This document shows, one piece after another, positions 3,107-56,627 of a DNA stretch of 56,627 nt. The notes under the pieces are model-generated. The model did not search any database. It was given only the letters and a program-made list of their open reading frames with translations, and was not told where the DNA came from. How positions within the stretch are numbered: position 1 is the first letter of the stretch; every line of letters starts with the position of its first letter. The position numbers and the translations under genes are program-made. The DNA is from Clostridiales bacterium UBA3680 (GTDB taxonomy: Bacteria > Bacillota > Clostridia > Lachnospirales > CAG-274): positions 8,381-65,007 of the forward strand of contig DFJD01000032.1 of NCBI GenBank assembly GCA_002372875.1. Direction: 5' to 3'.

Positions 3107-5450
3107 CGGTGTTCACTCCTTTCAAAATGCTCTCTCTGTTCCTTTTTTTGGAATCGATTTTTACTTCGATTTTTCTCACAATTGATGTAAGAATGCCCGC
3201 AAGAACAAAGTATATTATCGCTACGGCTATGAGAGGAAAAAACGCCTCGTATGTTCTGCCTCTTATTATATCTCCCATTTTGGTAAGATCTTGTACGGCT
3301 ATGTATCCCACAACAGCCGTTGCTTTTATCAATGCAACGATTTCCGCCTTGTATTGCGGTAAAAAGTGGGGCATTGCCTGAGGCAAAATTATTCGGAAAA
3401 ATGATTGTATATCTCCATAACCCAAAGAAAGCGCCGCTTCTGTTTGTCCTTTGTCAACAGCACCTACTCCGGATTTCACCATTGCAAATACGGAAGAACC
3501 AAAAACCAGAGTAAAGGCTATAACGGATACGGCAGAACCGGGAATTTGAGATTTTGCAAATATGATATAGTAAAGTATCATAAGCAAAACGACTACGGGC
3601 ATACCACCTATAAGCCAGGTGAAGAATCCTGCTACGGCATTTGCAGCTTTGTTTCCCTTTCGGCACGTCATAAATGCAAGAAAACCGAGAATTGTGCCAA
3701 AAATAATGGAGAAAACCGTAATAAGCAGGGTAGTAACTATACCCGAAATAAAAAGCTTGTATCTGTCCTCGCGAAGGAATGTTCTTTCAAAACTGTTCTT
3801 TAATGAAGCGAGAAATGTTTCGTCACTGTTGTTGCTAAAATTATCGCCTGTTTTATCCGTTGAGTTATCCGAAGCGACCGCCTGTGAAGAGGCATTAGCT
3901 GCTCGCACGATGAAAACGAAGGAGGCGGGTTGATATTCCACAAAATCCATTGTTTCTTTTCTTTCATCGGAAATTATGATGGAACCGCATATTATATCTG
4001 CTTTTCCGGCGGAAAGCGAGGCTAAAACAGCCGAAAAATCCATAGGGATAAAATCAACATGCACGTCCAGCTCTTTAGCAATAATAAGTATGGTTTCTAT
4101 GTCAAGCCCCATAAGCTCTTTGTTTGTATTCATATAGCTTGCAGGCTCAAGAGAATCACAGGCGGCAACCGTAACGGTGCCGTTTTTGCCGGGCCAATCC
4201 TGAACGGGAATAGTTTTTACACTTTCATCGGTACCTGTCCATTTGTTCCAAAGCTCATCTTTTTTCGATTGAGGGAAGGCATCGTATGTTTCCTGCCAAA
4301 GAATGGCTCTTTTATCTCCTTTTGCAAAGCCCAAACCGAAGAAGGATTCTCCGAGTGATTCGGGGAAGAGGGCAAGAGAACTGTCTTTGTTTGTCAAAAA
4401 CGTTCCAACTTCGTTGTTCAAAAGACCCGCATCTGTTTTTCCGCTTTTTACACCAAGCGCCATATCGGGCATTGTTTGATAATAGGTGTATTCCTCTACA
4501 TTTTTCACCTTAGAAGAAATAAGGTTTTCAAAAGGCGCTCCCGTTATCATAGAAATCGTTTTTCCGTTTAGTTCTTCAAAGGAAGTAAATTCAGGTTGAT
4601 TTGCTGCGGCAGCCGAGTTTGTTTTCTTAAGGTCTGAACTTTTTACCGCCAAAACAGCACCACCACCGGCTGTAGGATTAGAGAAAAGAACTTGCTCCTT
4701 TCTTTCGTCAGTTACGTTCATGTCGGTGGAAAAATCACATTTTCCCGATTCTACGGCAGGGATTCTTCCCGCAAAATCCACATCGGTCAGTTGAAGGGAA
4801 TAGCCTTTTTCACGGCAGAAACGAACGATAAGATCAATATCGTAACCTACGTTTTCATTGTCTTTTATGTAAGACCAGGGCATATCGGTGGAAGTGGTGG
4901 CAACATTGATACTTCCGTTTTCTCCTGTAAGCCCGTTCTTATCCACGACCTTGAGTGACTCATCGACACCGAGCCATATTTCCTCTATTTTTGCAAGGGT
5001 GCCGTCGGATTTTATTTTTGCAAGAAAATCATTAAATTCCGCACATAATGCAGCAGATTTCGGGTCGTTTTTTCTGAAAGCAAAGGCATAGTCGGCAGAA
5101 GTGAAACGTTCGGGGATATAGTCGATCAGCGGCTGCTCGTAGTGTACCGTTTTTATTTGTGCTTCATCTGCTATATAAGCGTCGATATTTCCCGAAAGCA
5201 GAGCCGCACTCAGGTCGGAATAGTTGTTAAAATACAGTATGGAACTCCCTTTAAAATTCTCAACGGCGATGGTTTCAAGGGGCGTTCCCGTTATGGTGCC
5301 TATCCTTTTACCTATATAATCTTGCCAATGTACGGAACTTTTATCTCCTTTATCTGTTTGTTCTGCATAAAATACAGATAAAAGTGAATGGGAAAGGATC
5401 ATTAAAAGTGCCGCCAAAAAAGCGAATAATTGTTTGTTTCTTTTTCTCAT
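3093..5450 (-). CDS. Fused amino-acid ABC transporter with two tandem substrate-binding domains plus a permease domain (GlnP-like, SBD1-SBD2-TMD)
   Basis: A signal or anchor sequence is followed by two periplasmic-binding-protein family 3-like segments. The C-terminal part has multiple TM helices and the permease EAA-type loop ALSLGYGDIQSFFRIILPQA. Confidence 0.88.
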   Translation of the reverse strand: MRKRNKQLFAFLAALLMILSHSLLSVFYAEQTDKGDKSSVHWQDYIGKRIGTITGTPLETIAVENFKGSSILYFNNYSDLSAALLSGNIDAYIADEAQIKTVHYEQPLIDYIPERFTSADYAFAFRKNDPKSAALCAEFNDFLAKIKSDGTLAKIEEIWLGVDESLKVVDKNGLTGENGSINVATTSTDMPWSYIKDNENVGYDIDLIVRFCREKGYSLQLTDVDFAGRIPAVESGKCDFSTDMNVTDERKEQVLFSNPTAGGGAVLAVKSSDLKKTNSAAAANQPEFTSFEELNGKTISMITGAPFENLISSKVKNVEEYTYYQTMPDMALGVKSGKTDAGLLNNEVGTFLTNKDSSLALFPESLGESFFGLGFAKGDKRAILWQETYDAFPQSKKDELWNKWTGTDESVKTIPVQDWPGKNGTVTVAACDSLEPASYMNTNKELMGLDIETILIIAKELDVHVDFIPMDFSAVLASLSAGKADIICGSIIISDERKETMDFVEYQPASFVFIVRAANASSQAVASDNSTDKTGDNFSNNSDETFLASLKNSFERTFLREDRYKLFISGIVTTLLITVFSIIFGTILGFLAFMTCRKGNKAANAVAGFFTWLIGGMPVVVLLMILYYIIFAKSQIPGSAVSVIAFTLVFGSSVFAMVKSGVGAVDKGQTEAALSLGYGDIQSFFRIILPQAMPHFLPQYKAEIVALIKATAVVGYIAVQDLTKMGDIIRGRTYEAFFPLIAVAIIYFVLAGILTSIVRKIEVKIDSKKRNRESILKGVNTDDRA

Positions 5451-23511: not shown

Positions 23512-25263
23512 ATGTATCTGGAAAAAATAAACGGCCCCGAGGATATTAAAAAACTATCTGTTGAGCAACTTCAGCCCCTTGCCGACGAAGTAAGAACCGC
23601 TCTTATAAATCGACTCAGTAAGATAGGAGGACATCACGGTCCTAATTTGGGAGTTGTGGAACTTACGGTGGCTCTTCACTATGTGTTTGACTCTCCTAAG
23701 GATAAAATTGTTTTTGATGTGTCACATCAGTGTTATCCCCATAAGATACTTACGGGAAGAAAAAGAGCATATACCGATGAAGAATATTTTTCCGAAGTGA
23801 CAGGATATACCAATCCTCTTGAAAGTGAACACGATTTCTTTATTGTCGGTCATACTTCCACTTCTGTTTCTCTTGCTTTGGGGCTTGCAAAGGGAAGAGA
23901 TGCAACGGGAGGAAACGAAAATATAATAGCCTTCATAGGTGACGGGTCTTTATCCGGTGGAGAGACATTGGAAGCATTGGATTTTGCAGGGGAGTATGAT
24001 AAAAATCTTATAATAATCGTTAACGATAATGATCAAAGTATAGCGGAAAACCACGGAGGAATGTACAAAACTCTCAAAGCTCTCCGTGAAAGCAACGGGG
24101 AGGCTGAAAACAATATTTTTAAAGCTTTTGGTCTTGATTATGTATATCTTGACGATGGACATAACATTAAGGCTCTTGTGGAGTTGCTTTCCCGTGTTAA
24201 GGACACCAAAAGGCCTATCGTGGTACACATACACACAATAAAGGGAAAAGGTCTTAAATATGCGGAAGAAAACAGAGAATTTTGGCATGCGGGCGGTCCC
24301 TTTAACATAGAAGATGGCTCACCAAAATACAAAAGAGAAAACGGAGATAATATTATCTACAATTCTCTTAAAGGTTTGCTTGAAAAAGATAAAACTGCGG
24401 TTATACTTAATGCCGCCACACCTTCCGGGCTTGGATTTGTCGGCGCTGAAAGAGATAAGCTTGAGAAGGAGGGCAGATTTGTTGATGTAGGTATTGCCGA
24501 GGAAAATGCCGTGGCAATGGCAAGCGGCATAGCAAAAAACGGGGGAAGGGCAGTATTTGGAACTTTTGCACCATTCTTCCAGAGAACTTATGACCAAATG
24601 TCTCACGATTTATGCCTTAACAATTCTCCCGCGACAATGCTTGTTCTTTATCCCGGAGTTTTTGGGATGAATTCAAATACCCATACGGCAATGTGTGATA
24701 TACAGATGTTTGCTCACATTCCCAATTTTGTATATCTTGAACCGACAACAGAGGAAGAATATACTGCAATGTTCAATTTTGCAACAACGCAAACAAAAAA
24801 TCCCATCGGTCTGAGAATAACGGCTGATTTAAAAAGCACCGGAGAAAAAGACGAAACGGATTATTCGGATTACAATAAAAACAAGGTCATACAAAAGGGA
24901 GAAAAGATCGCAATATTTGCTCTTCATACACTTGTGGATATTGCGCTTGAAACGGCACAAAAATATAAAAATAAAACAGGAAAAGAAATAACCGTAATTA
25001 CACCACGCTTTTTAACGGGTCTTGACACCGATCTTCTTGAAAATTTGAAAAAAGACCATGAGCTGATAATCACCCTTGAAGATGGACTTGTTGAAGGTGG
25101 CTACGGACAAAGAATATCGGCTTTTTACGGAACGGATAAAATAAAGACGGTGAATTTGGGAATTACAAAGCACTTTCATACCGATTTTAAACCTCTTGAA
25201 CTTCTTGCAAAATGCGATATAAGTGCAGATGGGATAATCAAGATAATTGAAGAAAATCTTTAA
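23512..25263 (+). CDS. dxs: 1-deoxy-D-xylulose-5-phosphate synthase-like (transketolase family) protein
   Basis: Motifs GGHHGPNLGVVELTVALHYVF, ThDP motif GDGSLSGG...NDN and the pyrimidine-binding domain DVGIAEENAV are present. At 583 aa it is somewhat shorter than a canonical DXS. Confidence 0.85.
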   Translation: MYLEKINGPEDIKKLSVEQLQPLADEVRTALINRLSKIGGHHGPNLGVVELTVALHYVFDSPKDKIVFDVSHQCYPHKILTGRKRAYTDEEYFSEVTGYTNPLESEHDFFIVGHTSTSVSLALGLAKGRDATGGNENIIAFIGDGSLSGGETLEALDFAGEYDKNLIIIVNDNDQSIAENHGGMYKTLKALRESNGEAENNIFKAFGLDYVYLDDGHNIKALVELLSRVKDTKRPIVVHIHTIKGKGLKYAEENREFWHAGGPFNIEDGSPKYKRENGDNIIYNSLKGLLEKDKTAVILNAATPSGLGFVGAERDKLEKEGRFVDVGIAEENAVAMASGIAKNGGRAVFGTFAPFFQRTYDQMSHDLCLNNSPATMLVLYPGVFGMNSNTHTAMCDIQMFAHIPNFVYLEPTTEEEYTAMFNFATTQTKNPIGLRITADLKSTGEKDETDYSDYNKNKVIQKGEKIAIFALHTLVDIALETAQKYKNKTGKEITVITPRFLTGLDTDLLENLKKDHELIITLEDGLVEGGYGQRISAFYGTDKIKTVNLGITKHFHTDFKPLELLAKCDISADGIIKIIEENL

Positions 25264-25320
25264 GGAAGCGCTGATTAATTCACTTGAAGCAGATTTGAGG
25301 TAATGTTTTCGAAATGCCCA

Positions 25321-26208: not shown

Positions 26209-26513
26209 TATCATTCCTCCTTCCATATATATATTTGTTTCCCCGAATATGTCGGGTGATAAACATATTATATATGTCTTGAATATTTCTTAATGTGTTT
26301 TCAGTATAGCATAGATTTTAACAAACTAAGGAAGTCCCCCGCTTCTAAAGCGGGGGTGCTTACTTAAAATACAGTGGGAGTCCAAGCTCCCACTGTATTT
26401 GGAATTGCTTGCAATTCCGTTGGTTATGAGTATGTAGCAGAAATTTATTTCTGCGGAATACGAATATCATTGACTAGAATACAATTGTTTTACGGTTTTA
26501 TTCCACGCCGTAC

Positions 26514-42079: not shown

Positions 42080-42129
42080 ACAGAAAGCATCTTTTAGATG
42101 TTGTTATACAAATTAAACCAATATATTTA

Positions 42130-42255
42130 CTTATCAAGAGTGGCGGAGGTAACAGGACCTATGAAGCCCGGCAACCGGCAGATGCACGGTGCCAAATCCT
42201 GCGGGTAACCGAAAGATGAGTTTTTCGAGCAGTCCCGCGGGGGCTGCTTTTTTGT
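42130..42255 (+). promoter_or_regulatory. SAM-I (S-box) riboswitch with a terminator expression platform
   Basis: S-box core: cTTATCaAGAGtGGcgGAGGtAacaGGaCCtatGAAgCCcgGCAACC...ggtGCCAAatCCtgc...gAAAGATgAG. The terminator gcagtccc/ggggctgc plus a T-run follows at 42229-42253. It lies immediately upstream of metK. Confidence 0.92.
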
Positions 42256-42306: not shown

Positions 42307-43479
42307 ATGAAAAGATTTTTCACATCGGAGTCTGTAACGGAAGGACATCCCGATAAGATATGCGACCAAATTTCGGATGCGGTTCTTGATGCCATATTGG
42401 AACAGGATGAAAACGCAAGGGTCGCATGTGAGACCATGACGACAACGGGTCTTATAATGGTAGCGGGGGAAATAACCACCGACTGTTATGTTGACATAGA
42501 TAAAATTGCAAGAGAGACTGTAAGAAATATAGGATATGATAGGGCAAAATACGGCTTTGACTGTGATTCTTGTGCCGTTATCACTTCCTTAAAAGGGCAA
42601 AGCCCCGATATTGCGCAGGGGGTCGATAATTCCCTTGAGGTAAGAAACGGTGATACCACCGAAGATGACAACGGAGCGGGAGATCAAGGTATGATGTTCG
42701 GCTTTGCGTGCGATGAAACTCCCGATTATATGCCCGCTCCCATCTATTATGCCCATAAGCTTACAAGAAGACTTGCACAGGTAAGAAAAGAGGGCATTTT
42801 AAACTATCTTCGTCCCGACGGCAAAAGCCAGGTGACTGTGGAGTATGACGATGATAAGGTGAAAAGGATAGATTCCGTTGTTATTTCCACACAGCACAGC
42901 GAAGAGGCGGAACACGACCAAATTGAAAAAGATATAATTGAAAATGTAATAAAGGCTGTTATCCCCGCAGAACTTCTTGATGAGAATACGAAGTACTATG
43001 TAAATCCCACGGGTAGATTTGTTGTGGGTGGCCCTATGGGTGATGTGGGACTTACGGGCAGAAAGATAATAGTTGACACCTACGGAGGATATGCAAGCCA
43101 CGGCGGCGGTGCCTTCAGCGGAAAGGATCCCACAAAGGTAGACCGCTCGGCTGCCTATATGGCAAGATACCTTGCTAAAAACATTGTTGCAAGCAAGATT
43201 GCAAAAAGCTGTGAGCTTCAGCTCTCCTATGCCATAGGTGTGGCAAAACCTCTTTCGATATATGTCAACACAAATGGAACAGGTAAAATATCGGATGAGC
43301 AGATCGTTAAGCTTATAGAGGAAAACTTCGACTTAAGACCTACGGCGATAATAAAAAGGCTCGATTTGAAAAAACCTATATACAAACAGACTGCCGCATA
43401 CGGACATTTCGGAAGAAGCGATGTAGATCTGCCCTGGGAAAGACTTGACTGTACGGAGGTATTCGGAGGAGCATTATGA
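42307..43479 (+). CDS. metK: S-adenosylmethionine synthetase
   Basis: Motifs [23 protein letters not shown] and [16 protein letters not shown] are present. Confidence 0.97.
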
Positions 43480-45079: not shown

Positions 45080-46122
45080 AGGAACTTGTTAACACCTCCC
45101 GTTACCTTCTAAAAGAAGGATTTTTGCCTATACACATTGTGGGTGAAACAGGGAATATCGACCATAATACCCATGCCGCCGCCTTTAAAAAGTCGGTGGC
45201 GGGAATAAAATATTACATATTCCTGATTGATGCAAATAAGGAATATAAGGGCCTTTATAACTTTTTGCTTCAAAAAAATGTCAGCGGTAAGGATAACGTT
45301 GTTGTGGGTGTGTTTTTCGGCGAGCAAACGGAAGAGCTCTCCGCCTTTACACAGGTGGATTTTGATGCCGAAGCACCCATAGCCGACGTTAGATGGATAG
45401 CCGACACGAAAGACAAAACAATAAAGACCCATCCCAACACTCCTACAAGGGTGCAGGGAACGGAGGAAGCGGTAAGACTCGGCTTGAATGCAAATGAGGA
45501 TGGATCTCTCGAAGCAAGCAGTTTTAGGGAGATATATTCTTCGAGGGAAAAGGAAAATATTAAAAGCAAAAAGGTTTATCTTACATACATAATAATAGCG
45601 ATAAATGCTGTAATGCTCTTGATCACAGGCTTTTTCCCCACGACCGAGAAGCTTCTTGCCTGTGGTGCTCTTTGCGGAGAAAATGTATCCGAGGGAGAAG
45701 TATACAGACTTGTGACACATGTTTTTCTTCACTCGGGGCTGTTACATTTTGCCGCTAATTCTATTGGCTTATATATTTTGGGCACAAGAGCGGAAATGTT
45801 TTTCGGCAGAGTTAAGTATGTTCTTTACTACCTTTTTACGGGGGTTCTTGCAGGAGCGACCTCTCTTGCTTTTTCCGCACCGGGAACGGTCTCGGTGGGT
45901 GCCTCAGGAGCAATATGCGGTATTATGGGAGCTTTGTTTGTTTTTTCCCTTGTTAAGAGGGTGACCGTAAGAGGACTTGACAGCTTTGCGTTGGCTCTTT
46001 ATGTGGCAGTCAGTCTTGCAAGCGGATTTTTAACGGAACATGTGGATAATTTCGCTCATTTCGGCGGATTTATCTCGGGTGCCGTTATAGAACTTATAGT
46101 AAGGAAAGTAAGAGATAAATGA
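45076..46122 (+). CDS. Rhomboid-family intramembrane serine protease with a soluble N-terminal domain
   Basis: The HVFLHSGLLHFAANS (HxxxN) motif, catalytic GASGAICG and a downstream FAHFGG histidine are present, with 6 predicted TM helices. Confidence 0.85.
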   Translation: MKELVNTSRYLLKEGFLPIHIVGETGNIDHNTHAAAFKKSVAGIKYYIFLIDANKEYKGLYNFLLQKNVSGKDNVVVGVFFGEQTEELSAFTQVDFDAEAPIADVRWIADTKDKTIKTHPNTPTRVQGTEEAVRLGLNANEDGSLEASSFREIYSSREKENIKSKKVYLTYIIIAINAVMLLITGFFPTTEKLLACGALCGENVSEGEVYRLVTHVFLHSGLLHFAANSIGLYILGTRAEMFFGRVKYVLYYLFTGVLAGATSLAFSAPGTVSVGASGAICGIMGALFVFSLVKRVTVRGLDSFALALYVAVSLASGFLTEHVDNFAHFGGFISGAVIELIVRKVRDK

Positions 46123-51400: not shown

Positions 51401-51427
51401 TATCCCCCCGTATGGGGGATTTTTTGT
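51401..51427 (+). terminator. Intrinsic terminator
   Basis: The stem atccccc/gggggat is followed by a T-run. Confidence 0.85.
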
Positions 51428-51600: not shown

Positions 51601-53109
51601 CTATCTTCGTTGTACTCTCTTTTTTGCTGTGCCTATAGCCCTTTCGGGGCAAACGATCAGGCAAAGGTGACATCCTACACATTTACTGCCGTCAAGTGTC
51701 GGCTTGCCGTCATCCCTTAGATTTATTGCACTGTGACCGCCGTCACTGCACGAAATTGCACACCTACCGCAGGCAATACATTTTGAATGATCGAATTTCG
51801 GGAAAAGAACGGTGTCGCGCTCAAGGCTATCGGTAGTGTCACTCACCGTATCGGCGGCAAGACCGACGATCTCTCCTACATTGTTATATCCTTTTTCGGC
51901 AAGATAGTAGTTTAATCCGCTTGTAAGCTCATGTATAATACGGTATCCGTATTGCATTACGGCAGTGGTTACTTGCACCGAACCCGAACCAAGAAGTATA
52001 AACTCCAGTGCATCCTGCCATGTTTCTATGCCACCCATTCCGCTTATGTGCATATCGGAAAGTCCTTTATTATGCGAAAGCTCCGAAATGAAACGAAGTG
52101 CTATGGGTTTTACCGCATTTCCGCTGTATCCGCCTAAAGCAGACCGTCCGCGTACCGAAGGTGCTGCCACAAGTGTGTGCGGATTTACGCCCGTTATACT
52201 CTTTATGGTGTTTATTGCCGATATTCCGTCGGCACCGCCTCGTTTTGCCGCTTCACCTGCAGGTATCATTGAAGCGACATTCGGGGTCAGCTTTGCAAGT
52301 ACAGGTATATTGCAGCCTCGTTTTGCCGCACGCGTAAATTGCTCAACAAATTCGGGCACCTGCCCTATATCGGACCCAAGGCCACCCTCCGCCATATTCG
52401 GACAGGAAAAATTCAACTCAACGGCATCGGCTCCGTTCTGCTCACACATTCCTGCCAATTCTTCCCATTCGGCTTCATCTTTACCCATTATTGATGCCAG
52501 AATGAATTTTGTCGGATAGTTTTGTTTCAGTTTGCGAAATATGGCCATATTTTCGGCAGCACTGTGGTCGGATAGTTGTTCTATGTTTTTAAATCCTATT
52601 ATTTCACCGCTTATACCTTTTATTGCGGAAAAACGAGGTGAAGCCTCATGTATATCAAATGAGCATATCGTCTTGAAAGCGGCGCCTGCCCAACCTGATT
52701 CAAACGCTCTTGCACACATATCGTAGGTGCTTGCGACCACCGATGATGACAAAAGAAACGGATTTTCAAGAGGAATACCGCATAATTCGGTTTTCAGTCT
52801 GCTTTTATCGGTAGGTTCGGGGATTTCAAGAGATGGCCTTATTTCGTCATACAGACGCATCATCAGATTCCGTATAGGTACTTTTCCGGCTCTTACACAG
52901 GCTTTCTCACAGGGGGCTGAACAATTTGTACACGGATTTTCGGGCGGTAGCTCTGCCGCGGCAACTCTGCTGTTATCAAACCATATTCCGCGTAAAGCCT
53001 TTGCCGATATTTTCGCGGGACAGACTTGTTCACAGCGAGCAAAGCCACATAGTGCGCAATTGATTGCTTCCGAAGGGTATATCTTGTTTTCAAATGTCAT
53101 AACGCTCAC
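51601..53109 (-). CDS. Dihydroorotate/dihydropyrimidine dehydrogenase-family (PreA-like) flavoprotein with N- and C-terminal Fe-S cysteine clusters
   Basis: DHOD-fold motifs GADAVELNFSCPN and ISGMGGI are present. The C-terminal 2x[4Fe-4S] pattern is CIACGRCAISC...CVGCHLCLIVCP. There are extra N-terminal Cys motifs CALCGFARCEQVCP and CTNCSAPCEKAC. Confidence 0.8.
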   Translation of the reverse strand: MSVMTFENKIYPSEAINCALCGFARCEQVCPAKISAKALRGIWFDNSRVAAAELPPENPCTNCSAPCEKACVRAGKVPIRNLMMRLYDEIRPSLEIPEPTDKSRLKTELCGIPLENPFLLSSSVVASTYDMCARAFESGWAGAAFKTICSFDIHEASPRFSAIKGISGEIIGFKNIEQLSDHSAAENMAIFRKLKQNYPTKFILASIMGKDEAEWEELAGMCEQNGADAVELNFSCPNMAEGGLGSDIGQVPEFVEQFTRAAKRGCNIPVLAKLTPNVASMIPAGEAAKRGGADGISAINTIKSITGVNPHTLVAAPSVRGRSALGGYSGNAVKPIALRFISELSHNKGLSDMHISGMGGIETWQDALEFILLGSGSVQVTTAVMQYGYRIIHELTSGLNYYLAEKGYNNVGEIVGLAADTVSDTTDSLERDTVLFPKFDHSKCIACGRCAISCSDGGHSAINLRDDGKPTLDGSKCVGCHLCLIVCPERAIGTAKKRVQRR

Positions 53110-53202
53110 CTCCGTTAAAAATCCGCTTCAAGTGAATAGATCGGTGCTTCCCTAAAAAATAATAACTATTCTTTGGAATAAACGTGTATTCGTTTATTCT
53201 AT

Positions 53203-53231
53203 AATTATACACTTATTTATAAAAAAGGTCA
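53203..53231 (-). promoter_or_regulatory. Sigma-A type promoter for the PreA-like gene
   Basis: On the minus strand: TTGACC (53231-53226), a 17-nt spacer and TATAAT (53208-53203). Confidence 0.65.
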
Positions 53232-53295
53232 ATGTTTAACTTTTGCGAATTGATTTTTAATAGATCACAAATAATAAATACGGTTACGATGGCAT

Positions 53296-53337
53296 AAAAA
53301 CAGCCCGTTAAGTTCACTACACAAAACCTAACGGGCT
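53296..53337 (-). terminator. Intrinsic terminator closing the candidate ncRNA transcription unit
   Basis: On the minus strand, the 9-bp stem agcccgtta/taacgggct (18-nt loop) is followed by gTTTTTa. Confidence 0.6.
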
Positions 53338-54029
53338 ATCCAACATAAATTTCCATATTAAATTTTTCTCTCTCTTTCCGACGTTTCTTTACACGTCTTA
53401 AGAATATTCTGATGAACAATCATCCTTCAAATCGCTCAATTTATACTGTTTCCAATCCATCTCTTTGAGCACATCGCTCCTGACCGCGCAAACAAAATCG
53501 GTCAAATTTCGGTATTGATACAAAATCTTGCGATTCGGTACGCACTCATGTGCTTCATACTTTTAAGCTAAAAGTCCACATCTCGAAACACCCTCTCTCG
53601 GAAAGTACTTCCAAACATAGCCTTTTACACGTTCTGTTCAGTAACAGACCGTCAACACAGACTAAACCGTCGGTTACAAATCTATGTCAAGCAACATATC
53701 AACCCGTTTCCCACGAGTCCCTCGAAGTTGCCTAAGGTATGCATTGACCTAACCTTCAACACACACTTAAGAGGTTATCCTATGTTCACAAACCTTATAA
53801 CGCTATATGCTAATTTCCACACATTCAAAAGATGCTCTTCCGACCGACAAGATCGGTATATGAAGGATGCGTCGGGGGGTTAATGAACAAATATAAACAG
53901 CCGGGCGGAATCACGTCCCTTCCAAAAACAGTTTCGGATAACAGATTCGAAACTTAACAGCGGTCTAAACTCATCGCTCACGAAGAACAATCTCATTGGC
54001 GCCTTATTGCTTTGCTCTTCGTTTACTGT
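53296..54029 (-). ncRNA. Candidate large structured non-coding RNA (about 0.73 kb), possibly ROOL or GOLLD class, family unconfirmed
   Basis: The intergenic gap is 1.1 kb, with no ORF over 68 aa on either strand in an otherwise densely coding window. It has its own near-consensus promoter (54036-54064) and terminator (53296-53337). Many hairpins are present, for example 53980-53990/54012-54022 (11 bp), 53930-53936/53948-53954 (7 bp), 53559-53575 (7 bp), 53633-53648 (6 bp plus tetraloop) and 53411-53424. It lies directly downstream of the tandem tRNA genes. Confidence 0.45.
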
Positions 54030-54035
54030 AATAAG

Positions 54036-54064
54036 AGTATATAACATTTTAAAAATTAAGTCAA
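54036..54064 (-). promoter_or_regulatory. Near-consensus sigma-A promoter of the candidate ncRNA
   Basis: On the minus strand: TTGACT (54064-54059), a 17-nt spacer and TATACT (54041-54036). Confidence 0.6.
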
Positions 54065-54199
54065 TAGGTTTTTTCTCTTTCGGCACTTTTATTTATGCTT
54101 TCGGCATTTTAGATAATATAAAACTGTTTTTATGAATAATATAAGTAAAAAAATAGTTAATTTGCACGATGTTAGCAATTTGTCAATATAAAATTGCAC

Positions 54200-54226
54200 A
54201 AAAAAAAGCAAGCACTGCGGCTTGCG
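54200..54226 (-). terminator. Intrinsic terminator after the tRNA-Lys pair
   Basis: On the minus strand, the stem gcaagc/gcttgc (54225-54220 / 54213-54208) is followed by an 8-nt T-run. Confidence 0.8.
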
Positions 54227-54229
54227 ATA

Positions 54230-54302
54230 TGCGCGATCGGGGACTCGAACCCCGGACCTTGTGATTAAGAGTCACCTGCTCTACCAACTGAGCTAATCGC
54301 GC
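54230..54302 (-). tRNA. tRNA-Lys (anticodon CTT)
   Basis: The reverse complement GCGCGATTAGCTCAGTTGGTAGAGCAGGTGACTCTTAATCACAAGGTCCGGGGTTCGAGTCCCCGATCGCGCA folds as a 73-nt cloverleaf. It has a 7-bp acceptor stem, a GTTCGAGTC T-loop and anticodon loop CT-CTT-AA. No CCA is encoded. Confidence 0.95.
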
Positions 54303-54321
54303 TTAATGTTTTGTTTTAAAA

Positions 54322-54394
54322 TGCGCGATCGGGGACTCGAACCCCGGACCTTGTGATTAAGAGTCACCTGCTCTACCAACTGAGCTAATCGCGC
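54322..54394 (-). tRNA. tRNA-Lys (anticodon CTT), identical second copy
   Basis: It is 100% identical to 54230-54302 and separated from it by a 19-nt spacer. Confidence 0.95.
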
Positions 54395-54418
54395 ATATCT
54401 AAAATCAAGACAAGCAGT

Positions 54419-54447
54419 ATATTACCACTTTTTAAAATGTTTGTCAA
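54419..54447 (-). promoter_or_regulatory. Sigma-A promoter of the tRNA-Lys pair
   Basis: On the minus strand: TTGACA (54447-54442), a 17-nt spacer and TAATAT (54424-54419), about 25 nt upstream of the first tRNA 5' end. Confidence 0.7.
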
Positions 54448-54503
54448 CATTTTTTTTGCTCTTTTTATTAAAATATTGAAAACAGAAAAAAGTCTGTAGA
54501 AAG

Positions 54504-54959
54504 CTACAAGCTGAACAGACCAATGACAAGACCTATTACCATAACTATCATTACCGTTACAAAAAACAGGATAAAAAGGATAAGCCTTCTGATTTTCGCC
54601 TCAGTGTAAAAGGCATTGAACAGGTCGGATAATTTTGAATGTGATTTGTTTGTTCCGTCTATATCTTTATTTTCATTTTCGGATAGACTTGTAAGTATTT
54701 TATCTATATCTTCGCTTTTTCCGTAAAAATCTCCGAAATAAGTGTAAAATGTGTTTTTTGATTTTTTCTCTTTTCCGTTTGTCGATTTTAGTATATCAAG
54801 GCATTTTTCTCTTTCGGCCTCGGTGTCCGAAGGAAATATGGTCGTTTCCTCTTTTGTATCGATTTTTTTTGCAATATCGGACATACCCATTTCTTTTAAA
54901 AGCTCAATAGCTTGTTGCCTGTCTTTTTCGTACATATTCATAAGAATCAAGCCTTTCAA
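54504..54959 (-). CDS. Tail-anchored hypothetical protein
   Basis: It is 151 aa, with a charged N-terminal part and a C-terminal TM helix (LILFILFFVTVMIVMVIGLVIGLF). Confidence 0.55.
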   Translation of the reverse strand: MKGLILMNMYEKDRQQAIELLKEMGMSDIAKKIDTKEETTIFPSDTEAEREKCLDILKSTNGKEKKSKNTFYTYFGDFYGKSEDIDKILTSLSENENKDIDGTNKSHSKLSDLFNAFYTEAKIRRLILFILFFVTVMIVMVIGLVIGLFSL

Positions 54960-56533: not shown

Positions 56534-56627
56534 AGGAAGCAACGATTAATTAGTGTTTTCTAAAGGAACCACTGATTAATTAATCATTCGCATATTTGGC
56601 TAATGTTCCCGCATACTGTGTCAAAGC

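Follow-up and report, generated by a model that had tools for sequence, protein, structure and literature searches.

On the minus strand of a 56,627-nucleotide (nt) stretch of Clostridiales bacterium UBA3680 (contig DFJD01000032.1; "the window" denotes this whole stretch), a segment next to two tRNA-Lys genes is almost devoid of open reading frames (ORFs). On balance, we take this segment to be an independent gene for a structured non-coding RNA (ncRNA) of about 734 nt, which belongs to no described family and is found, as far as seen, in one species of rumen Clostridia. We would class it as a candidate new family of a known kind, the large stand-alone bacterial ncRNA. The unit is delimited as follows.

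53296-54030, minus strand: predicted ncRNA transcript, about 734 nt long (U 226, A 207, G 192, C 110)
54036-54064, minus strand: predicted sigma-70-type promoter, with the -35 hexamer TTGACT (54064-54059), a 17-nt spacer and the -10 hexamer TATACT (54041-54036), 10 of 12 positions matching
53296-53341, minus strand: predicted intrinsic terminator, an 18-bp stem (53341-53324 / 53315-53298) with an 8-nt loop and a UUUUU run ending at 53296

The largest gap without ORFs of at least 100 amino acids (aa) in the window is 53156-54503, which spans 1348 nt; the runner-up measures 402 nt. A sequence-only reading of this DNA had described 53110-54229 as holding two short ORFs without a ribosome-binding site, and the ORF list agrees: the longest ones have 61 aa (53550-53735, plus strand) and 68 aa (53880-54086, minus strand), and direct reading of the sequence finds no Shine-Dalgarno motif upstream of either. 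The same reading had bracketed the segment on the minus strand with a promoter and a hairpin followed by a T-run, which a promoter scan and folding, respectively, bear out. Both promoter hexamers are invariant across five strain haplotypes, and an alternative reading with an extended -10 element (TGT-TATATA) is possible. The terminator was identified by its folding (-25.6 kcal/mol, z -6.34); a simple terminator scan had overlooked the hairpin, its rule being unsuited to this shape. Neither the stem nor the U-run is polymorphic in any strain. A predicted promoter and a predicted intrinsic terminator on one strand would thus provide the unit with what an independent gene needs. Base composition sets the segment apart as well, with a GC fraction of 0.38-0.44 (about 41%) in the unit versus 0.25-0.29 in its flanks, and with G far exceeding C on the minus strand. 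The unit is present as a single copy within the window.

The sequence-only reading had also held that the neighbouring genes are controlled separately, and this view has stood: the tRNA pair has its own terminator, and both the tRNA pair and the downstream PreA-like gene, which encodes DHO_dh (PF01180) and 4Fe-4S domains, have their own promoters.

54322-54394 and 54230-54302, minus strand: two identical tRNA-Lys(CTT) genes, 70.3 bits each
54447-54419, minus strand: promoter of the tRNA-Lys pair, from the promoter scan
54200-54225, minus strand: terminator of the tRNA-Lys pair, a 6-bp stem plus T8 (-8.7 kcal/mol; placed at 54225-54208 by the scan), which parts the tRNAs from the RNA unit
54031-54199, minus strand: AT-rich spacer between tRNA terminator and RNA (GC about 0.26), which includes the promoter of the RNA unit
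53204-53232, minus strand: promoter of the downstream PreA-like gene (TTGACC-17-TATAAT, 11 of 12 positions matching)

Could the RNA nevertheless be a 3′ extension of the tRNA-Lys operon, generated by read-through of the tRNA terminator and subsequent processing, rather than the product of an independent gene? The unit is co-oriented with the tRNAs at a distance of 200 nt downstream, the terminator stem in between is just 6 bp long and of modest stability, and co-transcription with tRNAs has been proposed for the placement of ROOL and GOLLD RNAs (PMC5737381). We consider such a trailer improbable, given that the terminator of the tRNAs contains four G-C pairs as well as a T8 run, that a good promoter, kept in all strains, directly precedes the structured part, and that the 170 nt in between are rich in A and T and show less conservation. 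Strain L094 (182-258) has a single tRNA-Lys gene where the window (54230-54394) has the tandem, which may reflect either a real difference in copy number or a collapse during assembly; the tandem is where the Logan contigs L002 and L108 are broken.

The unit is non-coding. Codon-usage log-odds, trained on the 29 genes of the window and scored in 38-codon windows, amount to 10.9 +/- 4.0 for real genes (5th percentile 3.8) versus 0.7 at best in the six frames of 53296-54030. When the six-frame translation, with stops as X, was compared with 5.8 billion proteins, 4370 shared words with it and none reached E<=10, and a Pfam search of the same translation gave no match. With no open frame, no codon-usage signal and no protein homology, a protein-coding gene or a recent pseudogene is rejected, and of the decayed gene that the sequence-only reading had named as a possible refutation there is no sign. 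The 68-aa ORF, searched exhaustively with HMMER against 1.84 billion representatives, returned two marginal matches near E=1e-3, of which the stronger, P0141 (E=2.9e-4), is spurious: it stems from a 90-nt tandem repeat with TGA read as Trp and shows no DNA similarity. Such a spurious match to the ORF surfaced from L111 (166-432), an unrelated metagenome contig in which three copies of a 90-nt tandem repeat yield a protein only with TGA as Trp. Gene callers placed no gene in the gap of contig L105. In contig L001, which is identical to the window, the JGI annotation has a 724-nt "gene" with a 107-residue product (L001 2043-2766, window 53412-54135, plus strand) opposite the RNA; this call looks like a gene-calling artefact over a non-coding region, because a length of 724 nt is incompatible with an uninterrupted ORF.

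A subtler possibility is that the transcript is the messenger RNA of a micro-protein, either of 38 aa starting from RNA position 35 or of 6 aa (MEIYVG) with its stop codon in the terminator stem. In its favour, the open loop of the 5′ hairpin contains an AUG and a weak AAGG, the latter five nt upstream of the 38-aa ORF, and the only two polymorphisms within these ORFs, at positions 52 and 686, are synonymous. Two synonymous changes are expected by chance about once in ten cases, however, and the 38-aa ATG ORF has a codon log-odds of -8.4, far from the score of real genes. Moreover, neither the 5.8 billion nor the 1.84 billion proteins contain a credible homologue, genes of the window use strong GGAGG sites (the PreA-like gene is an example), and about 600 nt of conserved structured RNA would be left unexplained. 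We therefore judge a micro-protein messenger to be very improbable.

As to known RNA families, the 4227 models of Rfam 15 were run on the whole window at gathering scores and on 53050-54450 (1.4 kb) at E<=10 with permissive filters. At gathering scores, the window yields only the two tRNAs and a SAM riboswitch; the latter, a canonical S-box element at 42128-42222 (plus strand, 77.9 bits), precedes an operon that starts at 42307. Within the unit, the search at E<=10 returns only weak matches of 14-25 bits at the 3′ end near the terminator hairpin (sroB, the PyrR site, the mgtC leader and a few weaker ones, the last being chance-level). The suggestion that the RNA is ROOL- or GOLLD-like accordingly fell: inside 53296-54064 there is no Rfam match to ROOL (RF03087) or GOLLD (RF01998), even at E<=10, and the checks for OLE (RF01071) and raiA (RF03072), which had been proposed along with it, were equally negative at either threshold, as was that for HEARO (RF02033). 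IscB/TnpB-like genes or genes for OLE partners do not adjoin the unit. An ORF-less group II intron was rejected at E<=10 for want of a match to any Rfam group II intron model, for example to the conserved domain V/VI hairpins, and so was a T-box, which has no Rfam match. The RNA thus appears to lie outside every described RNA family. In size, rumen Clostridia host and tRNA adjacency it does resemble ROOL and GOLLD (PMC5737381), so that a highly divergent ROOL, GOLLD, OLE or other described large RNA might be imagined to have been missed by the covariance models; with weak matches on the terminator hairpin only, among 4227 models at E<=10, we find this hardly credible. The earlier argument that a unit without a family match would be a new large RNA holds in its premise, whereas novelty as a large RNA is unproven with one species only.

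The match to the PyrR binding site (RF00515) spans the full length of that model at 53294-53407 (22 bits, E=2.7) and lies beside a pyrimidine-type gene (PF01180) of the same orientation. It might hint that the segment serves the downstream dihydroorotate/dihydropyrimidine-dehydrogenase-like gene as a cis-acting leader or attenuator, such as one of PyrR type. This alternative is exceedingly unlikely and already largely refuted. The score is far under the 54-bit gathering threshold, and the unrelated sroB and mgtC leader match the same 3′ end; the downstream gene has its own 11/12 promoter after the terminator; strain insertions of 0.17-1.3 kb separate the RNA unit from the PreA-like gene; and the RNA is absent from 80 loci with PreA-like homologues (68-86% aa identity). 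The 5′ untranslated region (UTR) of the PreA-like gene contains a 9-10-bp hairpin of its own (53150-53196, minus strand; GAAUAAACG...CGUUUAUUC), followed by a U-rich tract about 20 nt later. It has no Rfam match and is possibly a regulatory element.

What would such an RNA look like? Predicted folding is strongly strand-asymmetric, with a minimum free energy (MFE) of -227.1 kcal/mol for the minus strand and -157.5 for the plus strand. For the minus strand, z is -6.56 when 20 shuffles are used and -4.69 when 15 are used, compared with a background over 40 windows of mean -1.22, standard deviation 1.32 and minimum -5.25, and the candidate ranks second of 42. The background minimum comes from a coding window (45200-45934, plus strand; 15 shuffles). 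The MFE fold comprises 240 pairs, 21% of them G-U, and 17 hairpin loops, with many helices at pair probabilities above 0.9. The short hairpins listed in the sequence-only reading are present in this fold and in a repeat scan, with the qualification that the 11-bp stem, given as perfect, consists of 10 Watson-Crick pairs and one G-U pair. Its most salient parts are listed here.

53980-54022, minus strand: 5′ hairpin, an 11-bp stem whose 21-nt loop includes the palindrome GGCGCC; mean pair probability 0.94
53626-53861 (RNA 170-405), minus strand: central 236 nt free of polymorphism, all 12 segregating sites falling elsewhere
53569-53627, minus strand: long interrupted hairpin of 25 pairs (-20.7 kcal/mol, z -4.28)

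The central core is predicted to form four hairpins (RNA 265-294, 298-342, 343-377 and 379-402) with helix probabilities of 0.90-0.98. Two palindromes, GGCGCC at RNA 28-33 and CUUAAG at RNA 259-264, reside in predicted loops or junctions and would be no more than a pointer towards homo-oligomeric assembly. The stretches RNA 162-173 and 599-610 are complementary at 11 of 12 positions, and two polymorphisms preserve this pairing via G-U, although about 0.6 such pairs of stretches are expected by chance. A likeness to the tRNA-Lys anticodon loop (CUCUUAA, RNA 257-263) was dropped, as about three shared 7-mers are expected by chance. The motif GAGCGAT does occur three times on the minus strand (53431, 53473 and 53973), at the positions that the sequence-only reading had reported; the triplication itself carries no weight, because some 7-mer is found at least three times in 45% of dinucleotide shuffles.

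Copies of the locus from sheep and cattle rumen assemblies allow for a comparison among strains; the species is carried by the metagenome samples SAMN02144230/31, SRR8736xx, SRR5322831 and ERZ12302815. Three contigs (L001, L002 and L105) match the window exactly; L085, L086, L090 (same contig as L106) and L094 are distinct and full-length, and L091 and L107, one and the same contig, cover the locus only in part. Over the RNA, the distinct copies show 98.6-99.0% identity and not a single indel. Among the five strain haplotypes, segregating sites make up 12 of 735 positions in the RNA (1.6%). For the same four strains, the fourfold sites of MgtE and of the neighbouring 145-aa gene segregate at 13 of 246 (5.3%), which gives an odds ratio of 0.30 (Fisher p=0.0037). 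Pairwise divergence averages 0.76% over the RNA; the AT-rich spacer reaches 1.6%, and the fourfold sites of the adjacent genes 2.2-2.8%. The interval 54031-54229 has 3.5% segregating sites versus 1.6% in the RNA, and immediately past the terminator the strains diverge even more. On these small counts, the unit looks constrained, as if under purifying selection relative to neutral sites.

The rearrangements that distinguish the strains begin just beyond the unit.

53257/53258, no strand: strain breakpoint about 38 nt past the terminator, where other strains have a short mobile repeat

In L094, two copies of a repeat of about 160 nt occupy this breakpoint and enclose about 1.1 kb of additional DNA, which carries two ORFs (78 and 265 aa); altogether about 1.3 kb are inserted between its RNA unit and the position of the PreA-like gene. 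The promoter of the PreA-like gene is kept in strain L088, beyond the insertion point. The comparison of strains and the breakpoint at 53257 together indicate that the unit is bounded, conserved like a good protein gene and uncoupled in cis from the PreA-like gene. Its boundaries are further supported because promoter and terminator fit each other in spacing and strand and because the rearrangements start only past the terminator.

The repeat of about 160 nt is hairpin-rich and resembles a miniature inverted-repeat transposable element. It occurs in the window at 26317-26474 (intergenic), in L086 at 3483-3654, in L090 at 3391-3484 and in L094 at 1230-1400 and 2490-2584. In these three other strains a copy directly follows the RNA terminator, the two copies of L094 being direct repeats, and L085 retains only a 12-nt footprint at the insertion site. 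A second family of short repeats, with the end GGAACCACTGATTAATT, is found in the window at 56561-56627, 25253-25311 and 53119-53161 and in L088 at 1960-2150 and 1-140. The PreA-like gene carries one of these pieces inside its 5′ UTR. Another follows MgtE immediately, at the point where the majority of the metagenome contigs recovered come to an end. In L088, a further copy (about 170 nt) lies behind the PreA-like gene, at window position 51427.

The observed polymorphism also tends, weakly, to respect the predicted structure. Transitions account for 11 of the 12 changes in the RNA. Unpaired positions take 8 of the 12, compared with an expectation of 35% (p=0.02), mean pairing probability at polymorphic sites is 0.40 versus 0.65 (p=0.019), and in the alifold consensus a single polymorphism breaks a pair. 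A change from G52/C169 to A52/U169 co-varies, albeit in a possible helix of merely 3-5 bp. Support for the structure from polymorphism is only suggestive.

Several observations weigh against an independent structured RNA. A simulation that re-runs alifold on random mutations puts the probability of at most one broken pair at 0.17 and that of at least seven unpaired changes at 0.08, neither of which is significant, and compensatory double changes inside predicted helices are absent among copies that are at least 98.6% identical. The test for constraint rests on 12 versus 13 sites in strains only 1-1.4% apart. An ordinary coding window reaches a folding z of -5.25, so that the candidate is extreme without being unique, and its proportion of G-U pairs together with the lack of GNRA or UNCG tetraloops among the 17 predicted hairpin loops would make it unlike the well-studied ornate RNAs. 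Promoter-like matches in the AT-rich stretch number 5, versus 5.5 expected in shuffles. Finally, a homologue of the RNA was found nowhere outside the species, be it in the 80 related genome loci, in phage and plasmid records or in viral and metagenome pattern scans. The loci around PreA-like homologues share no flanking synteny with the window and gave neither an nhmmer nor a covariance-model match; blastn against phage and plasmid collections and two viral pattern scans found nothing; and the metagenome pattern scan recovered one true strain copy, of the same species, together with 11 chance matches.

The segment might instead be non-functional relic DNA, an old decayed gene or the remnant of a mobile element beside tRNAs, in which promoter, terminator and hairpins arose fortuitously. 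Consistent with it are the restriction to one species, shared by the orphan 145-aa neighbour upstream, the insertion of short mobile repeats right next to the unit, the frequency of promoter-like matches in AT-rich DNA, the structure-aware polymorphism test that is not significant, and an 11-nt perfect inverted repeat (53293-53303 / 54124-54134) that flanks the unit. A transposon reading of this inverted repeat was dropped, as there is neither a target-site duplication nor a second copy. In a relic, however, one would have to account for a polymorphism 3 to 3.5 times below that of fourfold sites (p=0.0037), for a GC content maintained at about 41% when true spacers have 25-29%, for the lack of any leftover codon signal in any frame or of protein similarity, for a copy number of one in the window and none in phage, plasmid and viral collections, and for strongly strand-asymmetric folding. 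A relic hence seems to us unlikely, and a functional RNA gene the better account.

The lineage of the host is poorly sampled. The PreA-like homologues with 86% aa identity come from rumen metagenome-assembled genomes named "Ruminiclostridium sp." and "uncultured Clostridia", the neighbouring proteins of one strain copy were deposited as "Lachnospiraceae bacterium", and MgtE has its nearest relatives at no more than about 66-70% identity, in loci without synteny. A neighbouring gene encodes a dockerin domain, which points to a fibre-degrading lifestyle of the host. Directly upstream of the tRNA-Lys pair, a gene at 54504-54941 (minus strand) encodes the 145-aa protein with a C-terminal hydrophobic anchor; among 5.8 billion proteins its relatives are its own 90% cluster and one 86% fragment (P0140), which indicates a sister lineage, and it matches no Pfam or PHROG family. 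Most polymorphisms in this gene change the protein (10 at the first, 3 at the second and 6 at the third codon position). Prophage genes are absent from the 8 kb on one side of the unit and from the 2.6 kb on the other.

How might the RNA be made, and how might it act? Judging from the sequence, RNA polymerase would start near 54029 on the minus strand, at an A located 7 nt past the -10 element of the sigma-70-type promoter, and would stop at the strong intrinsic terminator at 53341-53296. We envision that the transcript acts as a folded molecule, whose predicted architecture runs from the 5′ hairpin through about 15 hairpins closed by a long-range helix (approximately RNA 57-90 / 570-686) to the terminator hairpin. 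Conceivably, it is a structured RNA particle that acts in trans, either as a scaffold or as an RNA that binds protein or RNA, in the manner of ROOL, GOLLD or OLE; on this conjecture, a short antisense regulator or a cis leader would be less likely. A bolder version holds that it is the founding member of an undescribed class of large (>700 nt), intricately folded, tRNA-adjacent RNAs that form a particle, possibly by self-assembly, and whose relatives are absent from databases. We regard this version as doubtful.

To our knowledge, bacterial RNAs of more than 500 nt are very few once ribosomal RNA, introns and a small set of "ornate" classes are put aside. All of these ornate classes led to unexpected biology, such as the assemblies formed by ROOL, GOLLD and OLE (PMC12286853). 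If our interpretation is correct, the window contains an independent and unrelated tRNA-adjacent RNA of 0.73 kb, which could help to explain why such RNAs recur beside tRNAs. Its value is limited at present by an uncultured host, by the single species and by a structure without comparative support.

It is instructive to set the candidate beside the systems that it resembles. OLE is a large structured ncRNA of anaerobic Firmicutes and Clostridia, and it is located in a conserved operon with the genes of partner proteins. The candidate shares with it the large size, the structured character (here predicted) and the Clostridia host; it differs in having no model match and in its neighbours, which are tRNA-Lys, an orphan membrane-anchored protein of 145 aa and a DHO_dh-family gene. 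ROOL RNA averages 581 nt, was first seen in cow rumen metagenomes and is often found beside tRNA genes (PMC5737381). ROOL genes are often part of prophages as well. The likeness to ROOL extends to a large stand-alone bacterial ncRNA, a rumen origin and tRNA adjacency, whereas the candidate is without the covariance-model match that defines the family and no phage genes were seen among its neighbours; it is known from one species and has a fold that is a thermodynamic prediction only. GOLLD RNA, often near tRNAs, occurs in prophages and also outside them (PMC5737381); like the candidate it is a very large bacterial ncRNA in the vicinity of tRNAs, and unlike GOLLD the candidate has no model match, no phage context and a single host species. 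Both ROOL and GOLLD are widely distributed, which the candidate, as far as seen, is not. ROOL, GOLLD and OLE form multimeric assemblies made of RNA only, ROOL being homo-oligomeric (PMC12286853). A rather different comparison is offered by lineage-specific small RNA (sRNA) genes, which have, as the candidate would, a sigma-70 promoter and an intrinsic terminator of their own, an intergenic position, no ORF and a narrow range. Typical base-pairing sRNAs measure 50-300 nt. With about 734 nt and about 240 predicted pairs, the candidate is three to ten times larger.

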